Virus record (IMG/VR): IMGVR_UViG_3300044630_004720
DNA: 64,000 nt
Reading direction: 5' to 3' (one strand)
Source: a virus
Taxonomy: Duplodnaviria; Caudoviricetes
The translations under genes were made by a program, and so were the position numbers. Of the stretch, positions 37,372-58,874 are shown piece after piece. Below the pieces are notes generated by a model. It saw only the letters and a list, made by a program, of their open reading frames with translations. It did not search any database and was not told the DNA's origin. Position 1 is the first letter of the stretch. Every line of letters begins with the position of its first letter.

Positions 37372-37769
37372 TGGTGGAGGTGACGGGAGTCGAACCCGTG
37401 TCTTGCTCGTCATACCATAAACGGACTACACGTTTATTCAATTGGTTCTCAACTGACAAATAGAAGGTTAATTTCAGAAAACCTACAACACTGTTCCTAA
37501 CCGGATTTTCAAGAGCCGTCAGGTTTGCTCCAACACTCTAAGGTGGTGTTACACCGTAAGTACTTCTGTTCCTAGGTTATATGTACGTCGACCCGAGGTA
37601 GTACCTAACTTGGTTAGGCTGCTACTTTAGAAGTTGCAAGTAAACCTGCTACTTCCATTTGGTTGTAAACGTTGCCGTTTAAATTGTTTCACCATAGATT
37701 TAAGTCATAGATGAATTCTGACTACGTGCCCATTTACCATATCAACGCCAATCAATACCAAACACCCCC
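37372..37769 (-). ncRNA. ssrA: tmRNA
   Basis: 5' GGGGGTG pairs with 3' CACCTCC-A-CCA, including G3-U70; T-arm GGGTTCGACTCCC; tag ORF 37676-37614 (A)GNVYNQMEVAGLLATSKVAA*; promoter TACATTTG at 37784-37791. Confidence 0.93.
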
Positions 37770-37850
37770 AAATAAACTTAATACAAATGTAGACAAAAAA
37801 GGGTTAAAAAACAAATTTTAACCCATTTTATGTAAATATAAATGTATTAT

Positions 37851-38172: not shown

Positions 38173-39720
38173 TTACCTAAGTTGGTAAAGGTTATTTAAA
38201 ACCTGACTAACCTTATTTGGTTCTAAGTCAGGAATTTCTGTTGGTCCGAATTTATGTTTTTTCTTAAAATGTTCAAACCCGATTCTGTAGTTTTTTTGCC
38301 AAGTTTCGGAACGAGCAATTGTTGAATTTTCGATACTATCGGGAATATCATCAATATATTCCCAAGATTTATTTATGTCAGCAAACCACCAATATGGGGT
38401 AGTAAATCCATTTTTAAACGCTTGTAAAGTATGGTCAACGTGTTCCCAAGCGTTTTTATACGTTGAGTCAAATAAACCTATTTTTTCAATTACCTCACGA
38501 TTATAGTAAGAAAAGGAACCGACTGAATTTGGATATAATGCCACCTCAACACCATCAGGATATGTTACAACCTGTCTTGGGTTTGGTTCAGTTAATCCGT
38601 TTTGTTTTGCTCTATCTTCTAATGTTTGGAAACCTTCAGCTCCTTTCTTATTTGCGGGTCCTTGTAAAGCGTAGTTAAGATGTTTAATACCCGTCAACAC
38701 CGATGTTTTTATGTACTTATCAAATACTTCATCAGATTTAATTAACACATCGTCTTCCATAATAAAAATGTGGTCACATCCCTGTTCCATCAAATATTGA
38801 ATTGCGGTATTTTTTGCTTGTCCAACGGATTTATTTGTTTCGTGCTGAATTATATGTGCACTCTTTGGATATGATTCTTCATTGTAAGGAGTACCGTCAT
38901 TTACAATTACAAAATGTTTAACCCAAGAAGGAACGGTCGGTGCTGATTGTACGATTCTATGTTCGGCGTTATATGTCACAATACCAAGACCAATTTTATC
39001 CTTATCGTAATTTAATTTTTCATCAAAAGTTTTATTATTAGTCATTCTAATTGGTAAAACATCTTTGAATTTTTCTTCAAATTGGATTTTGTTATCTTCC
39101 CATTGTTGGTTTGTTTGTCCAATCGATTTGTGTACAATATCAAATTTTGTGGTTACGCCAATTTTAACTCCTTGGAGATGATTATTTAAACAAAATGGAA
39201 CTTCGTAGAAATGGAATCCTTTAAATTCCTCATCAAAATTTGTTTTGATTCTATCTTTATGAACGGCAAAAAATAACCCATCGACACAAACAACTTCTTT
39301 TGGTTTTTCATTTAATGAGTCGTTCGAATATTTTGATAGCCACCTATTTCCATCTTGTTCGTGGTAAACTCTTCCTACCATAGATTTTTTTAATTCCCAC
39401 CATCTACCATTGATTAGGTCGGTTGTACCGGCAATACCAATTACACCAAATTCAGGATTTTTATCAAAAATTCTACGAATCTTCTCACCAACGGATTTTG
39501 TTTCAATAATTAAATCATCGTGCATAAACACAACGATATCATATTGTGAATCTTTTAATCCATCATTATAAATTTCTGCTAATGATGAAACTCCATCATT
39601 TTCATAAATTAATATTTGTGTTTTCGGATGTGAAAACATTTTCTCAACGTGTTTTAAATAATCATCGTTGATTTTTCTTGTTGAAATTACAACACTTACA
39701 GGTAAATTACTCTTCGACAT
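38173..39720 (-). CDS. Two-domain GT-A glycosyltransferase (GT2-like x2)
   Basis: VFMHDD...DGLFFAV...GFHFYE in domain 1; FIMEDD...WEHVD in domain 2. Confidence 0.82.
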   Translation of the reverse strand: MSKSNLPVSVVISTRKINDDYLKHVEKMFSHPKTQILIYENDGVSSLAEIYNDGLKDSQYDIVVFMHDDLIIETKSVGEKIRRIFDKNPEFGVIGIAGTTDLINGRWWELKKSMVGRVYHEQDGNRWLSKYSNDSLNEKPKEVVCVDGLFFAVHKDRIKTNFDEEFKGFHFYEVPFCLNNHLQGVKIGVTTKFDIVHKSIGQTNQQWEDNKIQFEEKFKDVLPIRMTNNKTFDEKLNYDKDKIGLGIVTYNAEHRIVQSAPTVPSWVKHFVIVNDGTPYNEESYPKSAHIIQHETNKSVGQAKNTAIQYLMEQGCDHIFIMEDDVLIKSDEVFDKYIKTSVLTGIKHLNYALQGPANKKGAEGFQTLEDRAKQNGLTEPNPRQVVTYPDGVEVALYPNSVGSFSYYNREVIEKIGLFDSTYKNAWEHVDHTLQAFKNGFTTPYWWFADINKSWEYIDDIPDSIENSTIARSETWQKNYRIGFEHFKKKHKFGPTEIPDLEPNKVSQVLNNLYQLR

Positions 39721-40462
39721 ATAATGCTTCAATATTTCCGTCATATTCTTTTAAATCTATGACGATTGGTTTATTTGATGGTGTGTATTGTTCGGTACAA
39801 ATGGCTGCGTTTACGTATAGAGTGTCTTTTATGTATACACCGCCATATCCACTATGGATGTGTCCGAATACGTGTAGTAAAGGTTTAACCTCTTCGACAC
39901 GAGCTCTCAATAATTCACAACCTACACTCACACTACCTTGCCTCCAATTACTAACAAAATCTCTCGCTTCGTGAGGTGGACTATGAGTTACGAGTACATC
40001 GGTGTCGTCGGGAATCATATCCCAATATCTTTTTAAATCATCACCAAGCCTTGGTAGATTAAATGCCCAATTATAAAACTCGGGTTGCCAAGGACTACCC
40101 CAAAATTTTACAGGTCTTTTAAATTCAGGAGACTCAATTGTAAATCCACTATCTTCAAGATAGACAACATCAGATTGTGATAGATTCTCTTCATTCATTA
40201 AATGATGAAACCAATCGTAATCACCTTTATGATGTGGGTATCTGTGATTTTCAAAAGCCCAATCGTGATTACCCGCAACAAAGATTTTTGTATTGAATTG
40301 TTTTAAGTTCATATACCAATGAACAAATTCTTCAACATCACGTTGCGTTCCCATATTTGTACAATCGCCGGCGTGAATTAGCACATCACCTTCAGGTAAT
40401 GGTCCATATTTCTCCATTTTTGCGTGGAGACTATGTGTGTCGGAAATACAAACAATTCTCAT
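39707..40462 (-). CDS. Calcineurin-like metallophosphoesterase
   Basis: ISDTH; HAGD; AGNHD; VTHSPP; FGHIH. Confidence 0.9.
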   Translation of the reverse strand: MRIVCISDTHSLHAKMEKYGPLPEGDVLIHAGDCTNMGTQRDVEEFVHWYMNLKQFNTKIFVAGNHDWAFENHRYPHHKGDYDWFHHLMNEENLSQSDVVYLEDSGFTIESPEFKRPVKFWGSPWQPEFYNWAFNLPRLGDDLKRYWDMIPDDTDVLVTHSPPHEARDFVSNWRQGSVSVGCELLRARVEEVKPLLHVFGHIHSGYGGVYIKDTLYVNAAICTEQYTPSNKPIVIDLKEYDGNIEALYVEE

Positions 40463-40494
40463 AATTAAAATATACAAAATATTTTCATAAAAGC

Positions 40495-40522
40495 AAAAAA
40501 AAAGTCAGAATTTCTTCTGACT
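40495..40522 (-). terminator. Intrinsic terminator of the large ncRNA
   Basis: AGTCAGAA-GAAA-TTCTGACT followed by a T-run on the minus strand. Confidence 0.8.
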
Positions 40523-40530
40523 GAATTTGG

Positions 40531-41399
40531 GGCCGCACGGTCAATGTTTTTGTGAGGTCTCTTCCACCATTCAGTTTTACTAAACTGAAAAAAATAAAAA
40601 CTCTGAGATTACAAGTTTTAATAGTTGACTTTAGAAAGATTATTGTTTCCTTCCATATCCACGACCTTTTGAGTCGTACCAACCAGTGACGGTCAATTAG
40701 ATTAACCAATCCTTGAGTCATTAGATACTCTCACCATACTCATTACTCTTCGAGGTTGCCACCCCAACTCATCCTTGCGGGACTAGAGAACTTTCTCGTA
40801 ATTCACATCGGGTTTGGGACCCTTTGTGGCCGTGAACCCCTCACGACTATGTAGTCACCTGTCTCCAATGACTGACGGACACTTTTCCTTGTTTCTGTTA
40901 AGTTTGTTAAACCTTAATTAACAAAGTTTTTAGTTACCGATTTGGAAGGTAGCGGTCCGTCAACCAGCTTCTTCACCTTTTGAGCGAAGAAATACTAAAC
41001 TACCCTCTGAGACATCCCTGCCTCCACACTTTTGGACCCCTTCGAGATAAGAACCTTGGTAGATTCAAATCAAGGATTGTAACAGCACCACCTGTACACA
41101 ACCATACCTTTCGGTTTTAAGATTCCCATTGTATTGAATTCCGCAATAATATGATTGGAGGTCATATTTCTCACAACAATTCTACGAGTTATTCTTATTG
41201 GTGTTCCCACCTCAACCAAACGACCGGTATCGCTTGGTCATCAAATCACTTTCCCTACAGTGTTACCCTCAGTACTTAAGATTCAACGATATCCCGCTTG
41301 CCTACTCGAGTTCCCTTTCGGAAACCGCAAACCTAAACAACTAATTTAGATTCACTTTATACCGCTTTCACGGTTTATTTTAATCGACCATAGGCGGCC
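40531..41399 (-). ncRNA. Large (~870 nt) structured ncRNA, GOLLD-like in size and tRNA-adjacent context
   Basis: Termini pair (GGCCGC/GCGGCC and TGGTCGAT/ATTGACCG); several GNRA hairpins; no credible ORF; promoter TACATTTG at 41441-41448; terminator. Confidence 0.75.
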
Positions 41400-41410
41400 A
41401 ATATTTTTAT

Positions 41411-41419
41411 TCAAAGAAC
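41411..41419 (-). promoter_or_regulatory. boxA-like GTTCTTTGA element (also at 43060-43068 and 43181-43189)
   Basis: Three exact copies noticed, all in stable-RNA transcription units. Confidence 0.55.
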
Positions 41420-41473
41420 TTTTCGTTTCCGATTGTTTTACAAATGTACAATCAAAAATTTAAAAAAACAAAA

Positions 41474-41713
41474 TTATTTTGAAAAATTTTTAGATTTTTT
41501 TTTCTTGTCCACTTTTACCTCATAAGAACCCCCCATATCGTGAGCAACTTTAGGTGTTTCTACTTGTTTACCCTTGGATAGTTTCCATTCGGATTTTGGA
41601 ACGAATTTCCAATATCCTGTGTCCACTTTTTGTTGAGCTTCTTTATCCTCAAGTCGTTTAATTTCACCGACTTGTGTGTTTTTTGTTTCTCTAATTGATT
41701 GAATACACTTCAT
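41474..41713 (-). CDS. Small basic hypothetical protein
   Basis: 79-aa ORF. Confidence 0.65.
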   Translation of the reverse strand: MKCIQSIRETKNTQVGEIKRLEDKEAQQKVDTGYWKFVPKSEWKLSKGKQVETPKVAHDMGGSYEVKVDKKKKSKNFSK

Positions 41714-41763
41714 ACTTAAAACGTTATAATAAAGTATAACACATTAAACTGATAAAATCAAAT

Positions 41764-42069
41764 TTATTTTTTAATTTTTCTTTTATTTAAAAACTCGTAA
41801 AACTTATTTTCATAGTTTACGAAATGTGTCATTGCCCACCACTTACCAAAAACACTACCCGCAATGTAAACAATAATAACCACCCAATCACTTGCGAATA
41901 ATCTTTCTAACGAAAAATAAACTGAACCCAAGGCTACTAAATTAATCCATATAGAATTAATAACAAGTTGTTTTACTTTATTTTCATACGTGTATTTTAT
42001 TTCCATTGTTTTAAAAACATTAAACAACACTTGGAATAAAAACACTAAAACATATAACCACATAAACAT
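41764..42069 (-). CDS. Small multi-TM membrane protein
   Basis: Three hydrophobic helices. Confidence 0.7.
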   Translation of the reverse strand: MFMWLYVLVFLFQVLFNVFKTMEIKYTYENKVKQLVINSIWINLVALGSVYFSLERLFASDWVVIIVYIAGSVFGKWWAMTHFVNYENKFYEFLNKRKIKK

Positions 42070-42082
42070 ATTTTTTTACTTG

Positions 42083-42156
42083 TGGACCAGCCTGGATTCG
42101 AACCAGGGACCTACTGATTATGAGTCAGGTGCTCTAACCTACTGAGCTACAAGTCC
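42083..42156 (-). tRNA. tRNA(CAT), probably Ile2 (lysidine type); elongator Met not excluded
   Basis: Cloverleaf GGACTTG.../CTGGTCC-A; anticodon loop CTCATAA. Confidence 0.85.
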
Positions 42157-42179
42157 ATATCGTGCGATTACACGATGTG

Positions 42180-42668
42180 TTATTTCCAAAATACTGAAAC
42201 TAAAAGAATCACTAATGCCAATGTTAATTGAACTAAAGTTTTCATCGTGAACGGTTGTCCAAAATGATATGGATATAACATTGCAGCGACGAAAATTCCT
42301 GTAACAAAAAACAGGAATCGGTTACTCCACATTTCACCATTAAATGCTTTAACTCCATAATGTGAACCAACAATCCATAAAAAAGTAATTGCAGGTGCAA
42401 TCAAATATGGCCAAGGAGTCTTAACCCAATTCGGCATTTTAAATTGCCAATACATAATATACCAATGACCAAATGAACCTAAAAAGAAAAGTCCAAATGA
42501 GTATATTAAATAAATTATTTGTTGTTTTCCCATAAATTTTTTTTGTTGTTGTAGTCTAACTCCTTTGTACTCGATATTTGAATTTGAGTTAAACTCATCT
42601 AAAGATTGTATATATGTTTTACCATCTTCAGTTGGGAATGTTTTTATTAAATGTTCTTCTCTATTCAT
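42180..42668 (-). CDS. Four-TM membrane protein
   Basis: Four hydrophobic segments; lies between tRNA genes. Confidence 0.7.
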   Translation of the reverse strand: MNREEHLIKTFPTEDGKTYIQSLDEFNSNSNIEYKGVRLQQQKKFMGKQQIIYLIYSFGLFFLGSFGHWYIMYWQFKMPNWVKTPWPYLIAPAITFLWIVGSHYGVKAFNGEMWSNRFLFFVTGIFVAAMLYPYHFGQPFTMKTLVQLTLALVILLVSVFWK

Positions 42669-42678
42669 AACATTTCCG

Positions 42679-42752
42679 TGATTCCGATTGGATTCGAACC
42701 AATGACCTACTCTTTAGAAGAGAGTTGCTCTATCCAACTGAGCTACGAAACC
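42679..42752 (-). tRNA. tRNA-Arg(TCT)
   Basis: Anticodon stem ACTCT/AGAGT, loop CTTCTAA. Confidence 0.92.
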
Positions 42753-42790
42753 AAATAACACTACCGTCTTTGAAAGTTTTTATTTAATTG

Positions 42791-43039
42791 TTATGCCTTA
42801 CGGCTAGTTATTAATTTACTTTCAAGTTTATCTAAACGTGAATCTAATGCCCTATAAACATCATTAATTGCATTTTCACGTTCTCTGTTTTGAATTTCAA
42901 TTTCTCTTCCGAGACATTGTTGCACTTCTTCAATTTCTTTGTTATGTTTTTTCACCTTAACAAAGGCCATTACAGCAACTACCGCAACTGCGATAACCAC
43001 CACAACGGACATTCCTAAAATAAATGATAATATATCCAT
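42791..43039 (-). CDS. TM plus coiled-coil protein
   Basis: ATG 43039; N-terminal hydrophobic helix. Confidence 0.7.
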   Translation of the reverse strand: MDILSFILGMSVVVVIAVAVVAVMAFVKVKKHNKEIEEVQQCLGREIEIQNRERENAINDVYRALDSRLDKLESKLITSRKA

Positions 43040-43079
43040 ATTATGTTTCTCCTTTATTTTCAAAGAACGATAGTGTTTG

Positions 43080-43165
43080 TACCTGGGGCGGGAATCGAAC
43101 CCGCACGGACCTTACGGTCCAACAGATTTTAAGTCTGTCTTGTCTACCTATTCCAACACCCAGGC
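43080..43165 (-). tRNA. tRNA-Leu(TAA)
   Basis: ACAGA/TCTGT stem, loop CTTAAAA, long variable arm. Confidence 0.93.
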
Positions 43166-43255
43166 AGTTTATTTAAAACGTCAAAGAACCCTAATTAAAG
43201 TATAAGGAAAATTTTTAATAAAAAAAAACCCGAACAAAAAATTTTCGGGAGTCAG

Positions 43256-43327
43256 TACTCGGTACGGGATTCGAACCCGTGCTACGTCCGTGAAAGGGAC
43301 GCGACCTAACCACTAGTCGAACCGAGC
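43256..43327 (-). tRNA. tRNA-Glu(TTC)
   Basis: CGTCC/GGACG stem, loop CTTTCAC. Confidence 0.93.
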
Positions 43328-43422
43328 AAATAAGAACTAACATTGCTATCAGGGTTTAAATGGTTCACAGATAAATCCGAATCACCACCTACCGATTTTA
43401 CGGTATCTTAGTTAATTCTTTG

Positions 43423-43509
43423 CGGAGGCTCAGGGATTCGAACCCCAGATACCGTTTCCAGTATGACGGTTTTCAAGACCGTTCCATTCAACCACTCTGG
43501 CAAGCCTCC
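43423..43509 (-). tRNA. tRNA-Ser(TGA)
   Basis: ACGGT/ACCGT stem, loop CTTGAAA, long variable arm. Confidence 0.93.
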
Positions 43510-43513
43510 AATC

Positions 43514-43675
43514 GTTGTTTCAACTTGCAAGTTTACTCTTAACATCTCTTTCTCTACAACGACTGAACTTAATCACATTTGTAGTCCGAATGTGGCGTTG
43601 GGTAATTACTCCGTGCCTCTATGTAACTCTATGTACCTTGCTTTGTTACTAAGCGTGTTAAGTGTATGAAACAAC
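43514..43675 (-). ncRNA. Candidate 162-nt structured RNA between tRNA-Asp and tRNA-Ser
   Basis: 9-bp terminal stem GTTGTTTCA/TGAAACAAC continued by a 10/11-bp stem; internal hairpins. Confidence 0.6.
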
Positions 43676-43678
43676 TTG

Positions 43679-43750
43679 CGGTCCCACCGGGAATCGAACC
43701 CGGCACTTTGCCGTGACAGGGCAATATTATAGCCGATTAACTATAGGACC
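43679..43750 (-). tRNA. tRNA-Asp(GTC)
   Basis: TTGCC/GGCAA stem, loop CTGTCAC. Confidence 0.93.
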
Positions 43751-43833
43751 GTTTTGATTCTAACTCATCTTAAGTTGCACCACCCAAGTCATAGCTCTGG
43801 TTGACAAAGTCCTCGTTGAGTTAGTCTCAATTG

Positions 43834-43905
43834 TTGCGAGAGGGGGAATCGAACCCCCGACCTCAAGGTTATGAGCCTTGCGAGCTACCGCTGCTCTATC
43901 TCACG
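43834..43905 (-). tRNA. Initiator tRNA-fMet(CAT)
   Basis: C1xA72 mismatch, A11-U24, loop CTCATAA; promoter TATCTTTG at 43918-43925. Confidence 0.88.
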
Positions 43906-44087
43906 ATGTTCATTTTACAAAGATAATAAATATATACGAATATACAAAATTATTTTTGTTCATTTTTTTTATCTGTTCACGGTCCGTAAACATTAGATAA
44001 TTGTGAACATTGAAAAATTGGCAGTTTTTGCCAAGTTAAATTATAAAAAATAATATACCAATAGTGACTTCTGTCATATTTATTGGT

Positions 44088-56855: not shown

Positions 56856-58874
56856 TTACAAAATTTTTTTTGACAAAATTAAAGTTTCGTCCTTAAATTT
56901 TATCGATGTAGTTGAATTTTCTTTAATATTACCTTTTAATATCTCCTCACTTAAAAAATCTTCACATAAATTTTGTATGATTCTCTTGATAGGTCTAGCA
57001 CCATATTCTTCTTCCGAATTCAATTCAAATATTCTATTGACAACTGTCTTGTCAAAGGAAATTTTGTAATTTTTCTCCGATAACCTATTGACTAGTTTGT
57101 TCAATTCAATGTCAATAATAACTTTTATCGTATCAGAATCCAATGGATTGAACATAATGATGTCATCAATCCTATTTAGGAACTCAGGGTTAAATTGTTG
57201 CTTTAATGATTTTTGAATTATCGATTTTTTTACTTCTGATTTTTGATTTTCCTTGCTTGAGGTTGAGAATCCCATACCATCACCAAACTCAGACACTTTT
57301 TTTGCACCGACGTTTGATGTCATAATGATTAGTGTGTTTGTGAAATTAACCTTTCTACCAAATGAGTCGGTTAAATGACCTTCATCAAGAATTTGAAGTA
57401 GGATATTGAACACATCTTTGTGTGCTTTCTCAATCTCATCAAATAATATAACGGAAAATGGATTATTTTTTACTTTCTCTGTTAATTGACCACCTTCATC
57501 GTAACCTACGTACCCTGGAGGCGAACCAATTAATCTCGATACGTTGTGCTTTTCCATAAATTCACTCATATCGACACGAATTATTTTATTTGGGTCTCCG
57601 AATATCGTTTCTGCAAGAGATTTTGCTAAATAAGTTTTACCTACACCTGTTGAGCCGAGGAAAATAAAAGAACCAATCGGTTTATTATTGTCTTTAATAC
57701 CAACTCTGTTTCTTCTAATTGATTTTGATATCGTTTTAATTGCATCATCTTGTCCAATCACTTTTGACGATAGGATATTCTCTAATGTCAATAATTTTTC
57801 GGTTTCTTTCGAGTCTAATTTACTAATAGGGACACCTGTCATATCAGAAACCATATTATACACATCTTCAACACTTACAGGTGTTTTATTTTCTTTTTGA
57901 CTGACAGCCCATTTGTCTTTTTCATCCTCCAATTTTTTGAAAATTTTTCTTTCTTCATCTCTAAGCTTAGCAGCTTTTTCATAATCTTGATTTTTTACAA
58001 CCAAGATTTTTTTCTCCTTAACCTCATCAATTTTTTTCTTTAAATCCTCAATAATTTCAGGAATTTTCTTGGAAATCTTTTTATTCGAGCCAAGTTCGTC
58101 CATAATATCGATTGCCTTATCAGGAAATTGTCTATCTGTGATAAATCTCGATGATAACATTACAATTGTTTCAATTACATTGTCATCAAACGACACTTTG
58201 TGAAAATCCTCATAAGATGATTTTAAATTTTGTAATATTTCAATTGTTTCTGTTTGAGTCGGTTCTTTTAAGATGATTTTTTGAAATCTTCTCACGAGTG
58301 CACCATCTTTTTCAATGTGTTTTTTAAATTCATCAAAAGTTGTTGCTCCAATACATTGAATTTCACCTCTCGCTAAGGCCGGTTTTAAGATATTAGCTGC
58401 ATCCATAGCTCCACTCGCATTTCCTGCACCAACCATCGTGTGTAATTCATCAATGAACACAATAACATTTGTATTTTCTTGTAATTCATTTAGAATCGCT
58501 TTAATTCTTTCTTCAAATTGACCTCTATACTTCGTACCCGCAACCAAAGATGTTAAATCTAATGAAACCAATCTTTTATCTAAAAGATTGCTCGGACAAT
58601 TGCCTTTATAAATTTGTAGAGCTAATTTTTCAACCAATGCCGATTTACCAACCCCCGCGTCACCGACAATTACCACGTTGTTCTTCTTTTTCCTTGACAA
58701 TATCTGTGAAATTCTTTTAACTTCAACGTCTCTACCCACGACTGGGTCTATTTTACCTTCTTCAGCTAAACGAATCAAGTCTCTTGAAAAATTATCAAGA
58801 ATTGGTGTTGATGAATTTGGTCTTTTACTTTTTTGATTTGGTTTTGCACCGTCTTCGAAGAAATCTACCGCCAT
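56856..58874 (-). CDS. clpC: ClpC/ClpB-family Hsp100 ATPase lacking the N-terminal Clp domain
   Basis: Walker A GDAGVGKS and GSTGVGKT; FIDELH; FDEIEK; UVR coiled coil; MGF loop; promoter TATGTTTG at 58905-58912. Confidence 0.9.

Follow-up and report, generated by a model that had tools for sequence, protein, structure and literature searches.

What is made from the stretch of some 870 nt that lies on the minus strand between a tRNA array and a metallophosphoesterase gene in this 64,000-nt piece of viral DNA (hereafter the window, meaning the whole stretch that was analysed)? The initial annotation had read it as an end-paired, highly structured non-coding RNA with its own promoter, boxA and terminator, and had left undecided whether this RNA is a GOLLD or the member of a new class. 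The stretch lies beside a phage tRNA array: within 4 kb the same strand carries seven tRNAs (42082-43905) and a tmRNA (37372-37769). The neighbouring genes encode a glycosyltransferase (38173-39744), a metallophosphoesterase (39707-40477) and small ORFs that match no family, and comparison of 20 ORFs with PHROGs and Pfam names few of them (glycosyltransferases, the metallophosphoesterase, a ClpB-like ATPase and a weak tape-measure match); the assignment to a phage comes from the relatives in IMG/VR. A place near phage tRNA islands is a published trait of GOLLD, as are its variable 5' domain and conserved 3' domain (PMC12286853, PMC12990946).

An Rfam scan of the whole window returns a GOLLD match (RF02032) on the minus strand, from 41007 to 40600, with 320.4 bits and an E-value of 5.8e-91, where the curated gathering threshold of the family is 150 bits. 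The match spans model positions 1-416 of 416 and is not truncated, and in a permissive scan of 40400-41520 GOLLD is the sole family at E <= 1, with no ROOL, RNase P or intron. The check that the initial annotation had proposed therefore gives a strong full-length match, which confirms the RNA, vindicates GOLLD as the named candidate and removes the option of a new class; there is no opposing evidence on membership of RF02032. The Rfam model is limited to the conserved 3' domain (the 3' 408 nt here), and the 5' ~390 nt and the 3' tail lie outside any Rfam family model. Taking the match together with the start and end of the published GOLLD construct, we place the canonical RNA at 41400-40600, about 800 nt; the length of ~870 nt given earlier is thus too great, the extra ~100 nt being a 3' tail limited to one clade. 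The minus-strand MFE fold has a z-score of -6.1 against shuffles, which together with the Rfam match and the covariation described below bears out a large structured non-coding RNA gene, and two further observations of the initial annotation hold as well: GC content is 0.41-0.43 in the RNA stretch against 0.27-0.36 in the flanks, and the longest ORF in the stretch has 78 aa. We conclude that the locus is almost certainly a GOLLD RNA gene of the lake-phage type, in the stable-RNA island of a large freshwater phage. With a full-length RF02032 match its novelty as an RNA class is gone, and the class assignment is of small consequence, GOLLD being a family known since 2009, with a cage structure since 2025, and the type being common in lake phages. 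The features are collected in Table 1.

Table 1. Features of the GOLLD locus in window coordinates, with the evidence for each.
Feature	Position	Strand	Evidence
Canonical GOLLD RNA, ~800 nt	40600..41400	-	RF02032 match, collinearity with env-38, covariation, RNA-library contigs
Conserved 3' domain (Rfam GOLLD model positions 1-416)	40600..41007	-	RF02032, 320.4 bits
5' domain (cage cap in env-38)	41008..41400	-	66-94% identity with most fetched IMG/VR GOLLD loci
5'-terminal hairpin, 41400-41397 with 41388-41385	41385..41400	-	Pair counts in alignments A1 and A2
GUAGGC, 3' partner of the 5' pseudoknot helix	41300..41305	-	Pairs with hairpin loop 41395-41390
Helix UGACGGAC/GUCCGUCA closing the variable linker (40881-40954)	40873..40962	-	A1 columns 511-517 with 613-619
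Clade-specific 3' tail: U-rich run, T1, UGGUGGA, spacer, ACCGUGCGGCCCCA, terminator	40495..40599	-	19 distinct relatives
Hairpin T1	40589-40570	-	Covaries; 21 cells with double changes, 7.6 in shuffles
UGGUGGA	40569-40563	-	Invariant in 20 of 20 tails
3' strand AUUGACCGUGCGGCC of the end helix	40531..40545	-	Partner 41399-41383
Intrinsic-terminator-like hairpin AGUCAGAA-GAAA-UUCUGACU, then U run	40494..40522	-	Hairpin 40522-40503
Candidate -33 element TTTG, 20 nt upstream of the -7 box	41469..41472	-	Read from sequence
Candidate -7 box TACATTTG, TAnnTTTG type	41441..41448	-	Conserved in related leaders
BoxA-like element GTTCTTTGA, preceded by small hairpin TCG-GAAA-CGA	41411..41419	-	Leader conservation

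Relatives of this RNA are numerous in viral metagenomes. More than 120 IMG/VR contigs carry the GOLLD 3' core motif, and most of these match both halves of the window RNA at 66-94% identity by blastn (more than 40 contain both halves), on viral contigs as long as 333 kb. Among the phages of INPHARED, only two uncultured ones of 634-642 kb match. The viral contigs of the relatives, together with the promoter type considered below, fit a large freshwater Bacteroidota phage, and the host probably belongs to the Flavobacteriales/Bacteroidota. A scan of genome contigs with the 3'-core motif gave 34 matches, and among the 18 that were Rfam-scanned one is a real GOLLD, a Mycobacterium locus; the same scan shows that the matches in Chryseobacterium and Flavobacterium arose by chance.

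How much of the proposed folding do these relatives share? In alignment A1, which holds 46 sequences, the RNAalifold consensus has 199 pairs, 135 of them with compensatory changes, and most of the pairs in columns 480-903 (the 3' domain) change on both sides, as at 827/839, which occurs as UA, CG, AU and GC. Covariation backs the hairpins ACCGU-GAAA-GCGGU, GGUG-GGAA-CACC and CC-GCAA-GG and two hairpins with UCAAAAG loops, while the ACC-GAAA-GGU hairpin of the 5' domain is invariant; all the GNRA hairpins of the initial annotation, and its two hairpins sharing a loop sequence, are present, and most covary in the 46 homologues. Its 8-bp helix, TGACGGAC (40962-40955) with GTCCGTCA (40880-40873), is likewise there and covaries, with variants GGUGAAC/GUUCACC and GACGAGC/GCUCGUC, and it encloses a 74-nt linker whose sequence and length differ among homologues; in the solved GOLLD env-38 the linker is a disordered loop within the cage (PMC12286853). 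The long-range pairs 39/810 and 40/809 of the consensus are spurious, since the covarying partner of column 810 is 794, in a local hairpin that takes the forms GGUU.../...GACC and GAUU.../...AAUC. At the 5' end a terminal hairpin and a pseudoknot through its loop comprise 14 pairs, which are 99.8% paired in the 39 distinct sequences of alignment A2; with the partners slid, the share is 42% at most. In the hairpin the closing pair occurs as GC, UA, UG and CG, and the loop helix as GCCUA/UAGGC, GUGUA/UACAC, GUAUA/UAUAC and GUCUA/UAGAC. Both GOLLD domains thus have a secondary structure supported by covariation, and for lake-phage GOLLD the well-supported hairpin and pseudoknot at the 5' end add a detail of modest value.

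The closest point of reference is env-38 itself, a D7 homo-14-mer RNA-only nanocage of two domains with the linker inside (PDB 9MEE; Kretsch et al. 2025, PMC12286853). Its printed sequence starts ATGGCCGCTATGGTCG and the solved construct ends GTATTCTCAGCCT, which corresponds to window position 40600 (PMC12286853 supplement), so that the two RNAs share their start, AUGGCCGC.UAUGGUCG, and their end, GUAAUCUCAG. By eye, blocks of the 5' domain follow one another in shared order (GGCCGC.TATGGTCG, AAATAAA, CGAAAG, GATAAAGTG, CTGCGGTTTC, GAGTAGGCAAG), and the further blocks GAGGGTAACAC, CAATAAGAATAAC and GGTGGTGC keep that order as well. The two belong to the same covariance-model family with collinear 5' and 3' domains (833 nt in env-38, ~800 nt here), both have a variable linker enclosed by a helix, a GAAA hairpin in the 5' domain and CGCAA and GGCA loops in the 3' domain, and both lie beside tRNA genes on phage-like open-water DNA. 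They differ in sequence and in the linker, and the window has an extra 3' tail of ~100 nt that the solved construct lacks. The loop with the GC core and the GGCA loop of the window would be the inter-shell kissing loops L21a and L21b of env-38, in a mapping (L21a, L21b, L11a) made on position and sequence. The GOLLD of Streptococcus agalactiae, of the same family and with the same conserved 3' domain, forms a dodecamer (PDB 9L0R) and is without P9, P11a-c and P21b (PMC12990946), whereas the window keeps the counterparts of these env-38 regions, namely the ACC-GAAA-GGT hairpin block and adjacent CGCAA and GGCA loops, and so should resemble the 14-mer type. Of the GOLLD RNAs, only env-38 and that of S. 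agalactiae are known to form a homo-oligomeric RNA cage. ROOL is also a large ornate RNA of phages and prophages, found near tRNA islands and forming RNA-only cages; its sequence and fold are unrelated to those of the window RNA, and its Rfam model gave no match at E <= 1.

Could the locus nevertheless be something other than a GOLLD gene? Since the Rfam model reaches only the 3' 408 nt and leaves the 5' 390 nt and the tail uncovered, one might suppose that this large ornate RNA only resembles GOLLD and stands for a class of its own. Yet this uncovered 5' half follows the 5' domain of env-38 collinearly and is joined to a GOLLD 3' domain in most of the fetched homologues, and by definition a GOLLD joins a conserved 3' domain to a 5' domain that varies more (PMC12286853, PMC12990946); the RF02032 match, the homologues with both halves and the collinearity with env-38 refute a new class, to which we give almost no weight. 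The proximity of the metallophosphoesterase gene, which begins 18 nt past the T run and keeps its place in the closest relatives, raises in turn the possibility that the stretch is coding or forms a long 5' UTR of that gene (39707-40477). This is just as improbable: the ORFs, of 78 aa at most, overlap covarying helices, no conserved reading frame is visible across the homologues, a terminator stands between the RNA and the gene, and in most homologues other genes, tRNAs or terminators come after the RNA.

With the identity as GOLLD in place, we consider how this GOLLD would be transcribed. Bacteroidota have a promoter type of the form TTTG / TAnnTTTG, and the spacing of the -33 and -7 elements here fits it. 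The window holds no excess of the TAnnTTTG motif as such (91 found against 102 expected), but 55 of 68 distinct GOLLD leaders have one, at a fixed distance of 34-36 or 29-30 nt upstream of the boxA-like motif, and the same box precedes the tmRNA by 15 nt (box at 37784-37791) and the first tRNA by 13 nt (box at 43918-43925). The promoter box TACATTTG that the initial annotation placed at 41448-41441 is therefore present and kept in related leaders. Its boxA-like element, GTTCTTTGA at 41419-41411, fares as well: it starts 29 nt after the start of TACATTTG and is the most conserved 9-mer of the 68 leaders (63 of them, or 65 when the variants GTTCTTTA, GCTCTTTA and GCTCTTTG are counted), at 19 to 122 nt from the GOLLD start. 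Compared with the gamma-proteobacterial boxA consensus GYTCTTTAANA (PMC5725501), GTTCTTTGAAT agrees at 10 of 11 positions.

A closer comparison is with the rrn operons of the probable host group, for which we used Flavobacteriaceae genomes that had been reached through chance matches to the 3'-core pattern. In their 16S leaders AGTTCATTGACATATTGA occurs about 50 nt after a TAnnTTTG box, and most of the leaders examined have AGTTC(A/T)T(T/A)(G/A)ACATATTGA at a distance of 114-217 nt upstream of the 16S gene. The sequence GTTCTTTGACATATTGA of some GOLLD leaders resembles these rrn leaders. The window shares with the rrn operon leader (boxB-boxA-boxC, Nus/SuhB) the order of promoter, small hairpin, GTTCTTTGA(A) and long untranslated structured RNA; it differs in that its leader is only about 34 nt long and is without the boxC-like GATTATCCRTTCAG block of longer GOLLD leaders. 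Exact copies of GTTCTTTGA number three in the window, all on the minus strand within the RNA-gene island, and the other two flank tRNA-Leu; over 1.18 Mb of related loci the boxA-like motif is found 132 times on the GOLLD strand against 24 on the opposite one. One might instead take GTTCTTTG for a promoter-like element, since it resembles the 3' part of the TAnnTTTG box. We give this less credence: GTTC never varies, and in huge phages the motif also comes after tRNAs at places that lack a promoter box. From these likenesses we lean, by a small measure, towards a GOLLD leader that loads a host Nus antitermination/RNA-folding complex, as happens for rRNA. A conserved promoter followed by a boxA-like leader, likewise a detail of modest value for lake-phage GOLLD, would then point to Nus-dependent transcription, and perhaps chaperoned folding, of a cage RNA. 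In a full-text literature search GOLLD did not turn up in any paper alongside boxA, antitermination or NusB, and a search for the GTTCTTTGA string returned unrelated primers only.

At the other end of the RNA, the tail of ~100 nt is lacking in most homologues and present in 19 distinct relatives; among relatives, homology ends a few bases past GUAAUCUCAG, and in most a terminator or a tRNA follows. The terminator of the window was found as the initial annotation described it, a hairpin at 40522-40503 followed by a T run, and the hairpin is kept in the tail clade with a loop that varies. Tail structure was taken from single-sequence folds, RNAalifold having predicted nothing on the gap-rich alignment of 20 tails. 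In these folds all 20 tails form a local hairpin, T2, in which UGG.GG pairs with CC.CCA and whose inner stem occurs as CCUCAC/GUGCGG, GUACG/CGUGC, GAACG/CGUUC, AAACG/CGUUU, CCUU/AAGG and CUCG/CGAG. The gain in one subclade of a structured 3' tail, in which UGGUGGA never varies, is again a detail of modest value.

The tail also contains the 3' strand of the end pairing from which the initial annotation drew its description of the RNA. The complementarity itself is real: the 5' strand GGCCGC-CTA-TGGTCGAT (GGCCGCCTATGGTCGAT; 41399-41383, minus strand) meets, 854 nt downstream, ATTGACCG-T-GCGGCC (the near-complement ATTGACCGTGCGGCC; 40545-40531). As a conserved feature of the RNA the end pairing does not stand, being confined to the nearest relatives, uncompensated and in competition with rival local pairings. 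We conclude that the end helix most likely lies outside the GOLLD architecture, the complementarity of the 5' and 3' ends being apart from the working structure, because it is limited to a clade, is uncompensated, has in both its strands better-supported local partners and is dispensed with by the tail-less env-38.

The contrary reading, which we hold to be unlikely, is that of an end-clamped GOLLD variant in a narrow subclade, whose primary transcript of ~900 nt closes through 41399-41383/40545-40531. The clamp would be a precursor or processing stem or would protect the ends, would be gone, or open, by the time the 5' pseudoknot forms and the cage assembles, and would be set up behind boxA in the manner of the rRNA leader-trailer helix. 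The end duplex of the window does have an energy of -23.8 kcal/mol, matched by 0 of 200 shuffles, and the MFE fold of the whole transcript uses it; in the nearest subclade (L011, L051, L066, L084 and L110) it reaches -17.7 to -18.0 kcal/mol, matched by 0-3.5% of shuffles. In the remaining tail relatives, however, it falls to -13 to -15 kcal/mol, near the shuffle mean of about -12, and the partner is absent from L038 (85% identical), L047 (91%), L228 and L286. ACCG...GGCC is kept in 15 of 19 tails and is able to pair with the UGGU...GGCC of the 5' end, but GGCC is a palindrome, any two copies of which pair. Moreover, the changes to the helix in the tail clade are all one-sided and weaken it (most relatives have G to A, which leaves a C-A mismatch, L073 has an insertion and L074 two uncompensated changes in the 5' strand), and none of the tail-clade relatives has a compensatory change. 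The 5' strand is engaged by the covarying hairpin and pseudoknot in all 46 homologues, the 3' strand has a local hairpin, T2, with an inner stem compensated in six forms, and env-38 assembles without any tail. In E. coli rrn operons boxA is followed after 18-19 nt by the leader strand of the leader-trailer helix (PMC10250234); here the 5' strand begins 11 nt past the boxA-like motif. The window's own leader/trailer pair also beats all 67 cross pairs. Across the family, by contrast, pairing of the whole leader (boxA to start) with 110 nt of trailer in 68 loci gives -26.55 for self against -25.96 for cross, which is no general effect, and a family-wide, rRNA-like leader-trailer helix kept by compensation was not found. 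A separate A-U helix of leader and trailer (the 22 nt before GGCCG with the U-rich 3' end) was rejected, self pairing being no better than cross (-5.58 against -5.63 kcal/mol, permutation p 0.57). The subgroup of loci in which a tRNA follows scores high in leader/trailer complementarity, where the GC-rich tRNA trailers are a confounder. The combined reading, in which the boxA leader loads Nus and the trailer transiently clamps the 5' end as a precursor helix, so that the RNA would be manufactured much as rRNA is, we regard as more doubtful still; if true, the clamp or precursor helix is what would be new.

Returning to the GOLLD gene with an end helix outside its architecture, its expression can be pictured as follows. 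Transcription would start at the RNA's own TTTG/TAnnTTTG promoter and pass through a short leader, where the boxA-like element probably recruits the Nus antitermination machinery of the host by analogy with rRNA operons, and the primary transcript would run on through the clade-specific structured tail to the terminator at 40522-40503. The RNA may then fold and self-assemble like env-38, an outcome we expect because the 5' cap domain, the linker-enclosing helix and the loop motifs are the same; judged by these shared elements, formation of a cage by the window GOLLD is quite probable. Far more tentative, and a guess, is that the cage, made during infection, stores components of the translation apparatus or acts on them; published ideas on the GOLLD cage have it enclosing tRNAs or ribosomes (PMC12286853, PMC12990946).

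GOLLD sequence is present in RNA libraries. In four RNA runs cover is slight or nil over the flanking genes (39700-40455 and 41464-42051) and over most of the tail (40456-40591), and contigs of several RNA runs end at 41383-41393, figures to be read with the nature of contigs in mind, which are blind to transcript ends, strand, level and absence, so that an uncovered leader, tail or flank is no evidence of trimming or silence. About half of the RNA stretch is present in six RNA runs of five freshwater studies, and freshwater or lake DNA runs of some ten studies contain it nearly complete. Contigs from the RNA libraries of four freshwater studies cover 40592-41393, and some of these pieces are identical to the window.

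The distribution of putative promoter boxes over the RNA-gene island bears on how its members are transcribed. Candidate boxes of the Bacteroidota type TAnnTTTG stand before the tmRNA and before the first tRNA-Met (listed in the table below), which suggests that the tmRNA is transcribed from one promoter, the tRNA array from another and GOLLD (RF02032) from a third. The boxA-like 9-mer of the GOLLD leader, GTTCTTTGA, is confined to the island: all three of its exact copies in the 64-kb window are found on the RNA-gene strand and within a 2-kb island (chance expectation for the window, both strands together, 1.15), and two of them flank the tRNA-Leu gene.

Features of the RNA-gene island and one further phage gene
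Feature	Position	Strand	Remarks
TAnnTTTG box TACATTTG	37784-37791	minus	15 nt before tmRNA 5' end
TAnnTTTG box TATCTTTG	43918-43925	minus	13 nt before first tRNA-Met
boxA-like GTTCTTTGA, exact copy	43181-43189	minus	16 nt before tRNA-Leu (43079-43165)
boxA-like GTTCTTTGA, exact copy	43060-43068	minus	11 nt after tRNA-Leu (43079-43165)
Phage-encoded tmRNA	37372-37769	minus	Rfam, 85.7 bits
Phage-encoded ClpB/ClpC-like double AAA+ ATPase	56856-58874	minus	AAA_2 E 5e-69; ClpB_D2-small

Other GOLLD loci show how such a leader can be built. At L010, L052 and L118, GOLLD is preceded by no promoter box of its own; a tRNA 3' end is followed directly by the hairpin GAGTTCTC-AACG-GAGAAC, then by CGTTCTTTGA(A/C)ATATTG and GOLLD itself; the hairpin and the motif make up a boxB-like plus boxA-like unit within a tRNA operon. 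A comparable hairpin together with GTTCTTTGA is found at L002, from a 635-kb uncultured phage (LR745206). Most long GOLLD leaders (e.g. L012, L018 and L045) carry an extra conserved block, GATTATCC(A/G)TTCAG, perhaps boxC-like, 8-12 nt past the boxA-like motif. A hairpin, which is variable, and CTGATAAAGATA come after this block; in the clade to which the window belongs, this part of the leader has been lost. In Flavobacteriaceae rrn leaders (L157, L163-L186) the strongly conserved motif 114-217 nt upstream of the 16S gene is AGTTCATTGACATATTGAATTGACAG, presumably the boxA of this family, and Chryseobacterium has GATCATTGACATACAAT in its place.

Among the homologues, a Mycobacterium sp. D16Q14 contig (L131) holds a genuine GOLLD (197 bits) within a tRNA array of about 12 genes, and the linker of this GOLLD itself contains one tRNA. 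The arrangement agrees with published Mycobacterium tRNA-array GOLLDs. At columns 712-724 of the 46-sequence GOLLD alignment (A1), the loop reads CGCAA in nearly all homologues and UCGAA in L009 and L015. A GC-to-CG switch in a palindromic kissing-loop core has been described for L21a, an inter-shell kissing loop of GOLLD env-38 (Kretsch et al., 2025, PMC12286853), and the change to UCGAA in L009 and L015, in a loop mapped to L21a by position and sequence, is this switch.

The tmRNA lies on the same strand as GOLLD, 2.7 kb downstream, and its predicted tag has 20 residues (GNVYNQMEVAGLLATSKVAA). Its 3' end, UCCACCA (37372-37378), is the exact complement of UGGUGGA (40563-40569), an invariant motif in the clade-specific 3' tail of the window's GOLLD, and tRNA-Ala-type acceptor ends are likewise complementary to it; both complementarities were noticed post hoc, and the motif is also accounted for by local pairing with CCCCA inside T2, a hairpin predicted within the tail.
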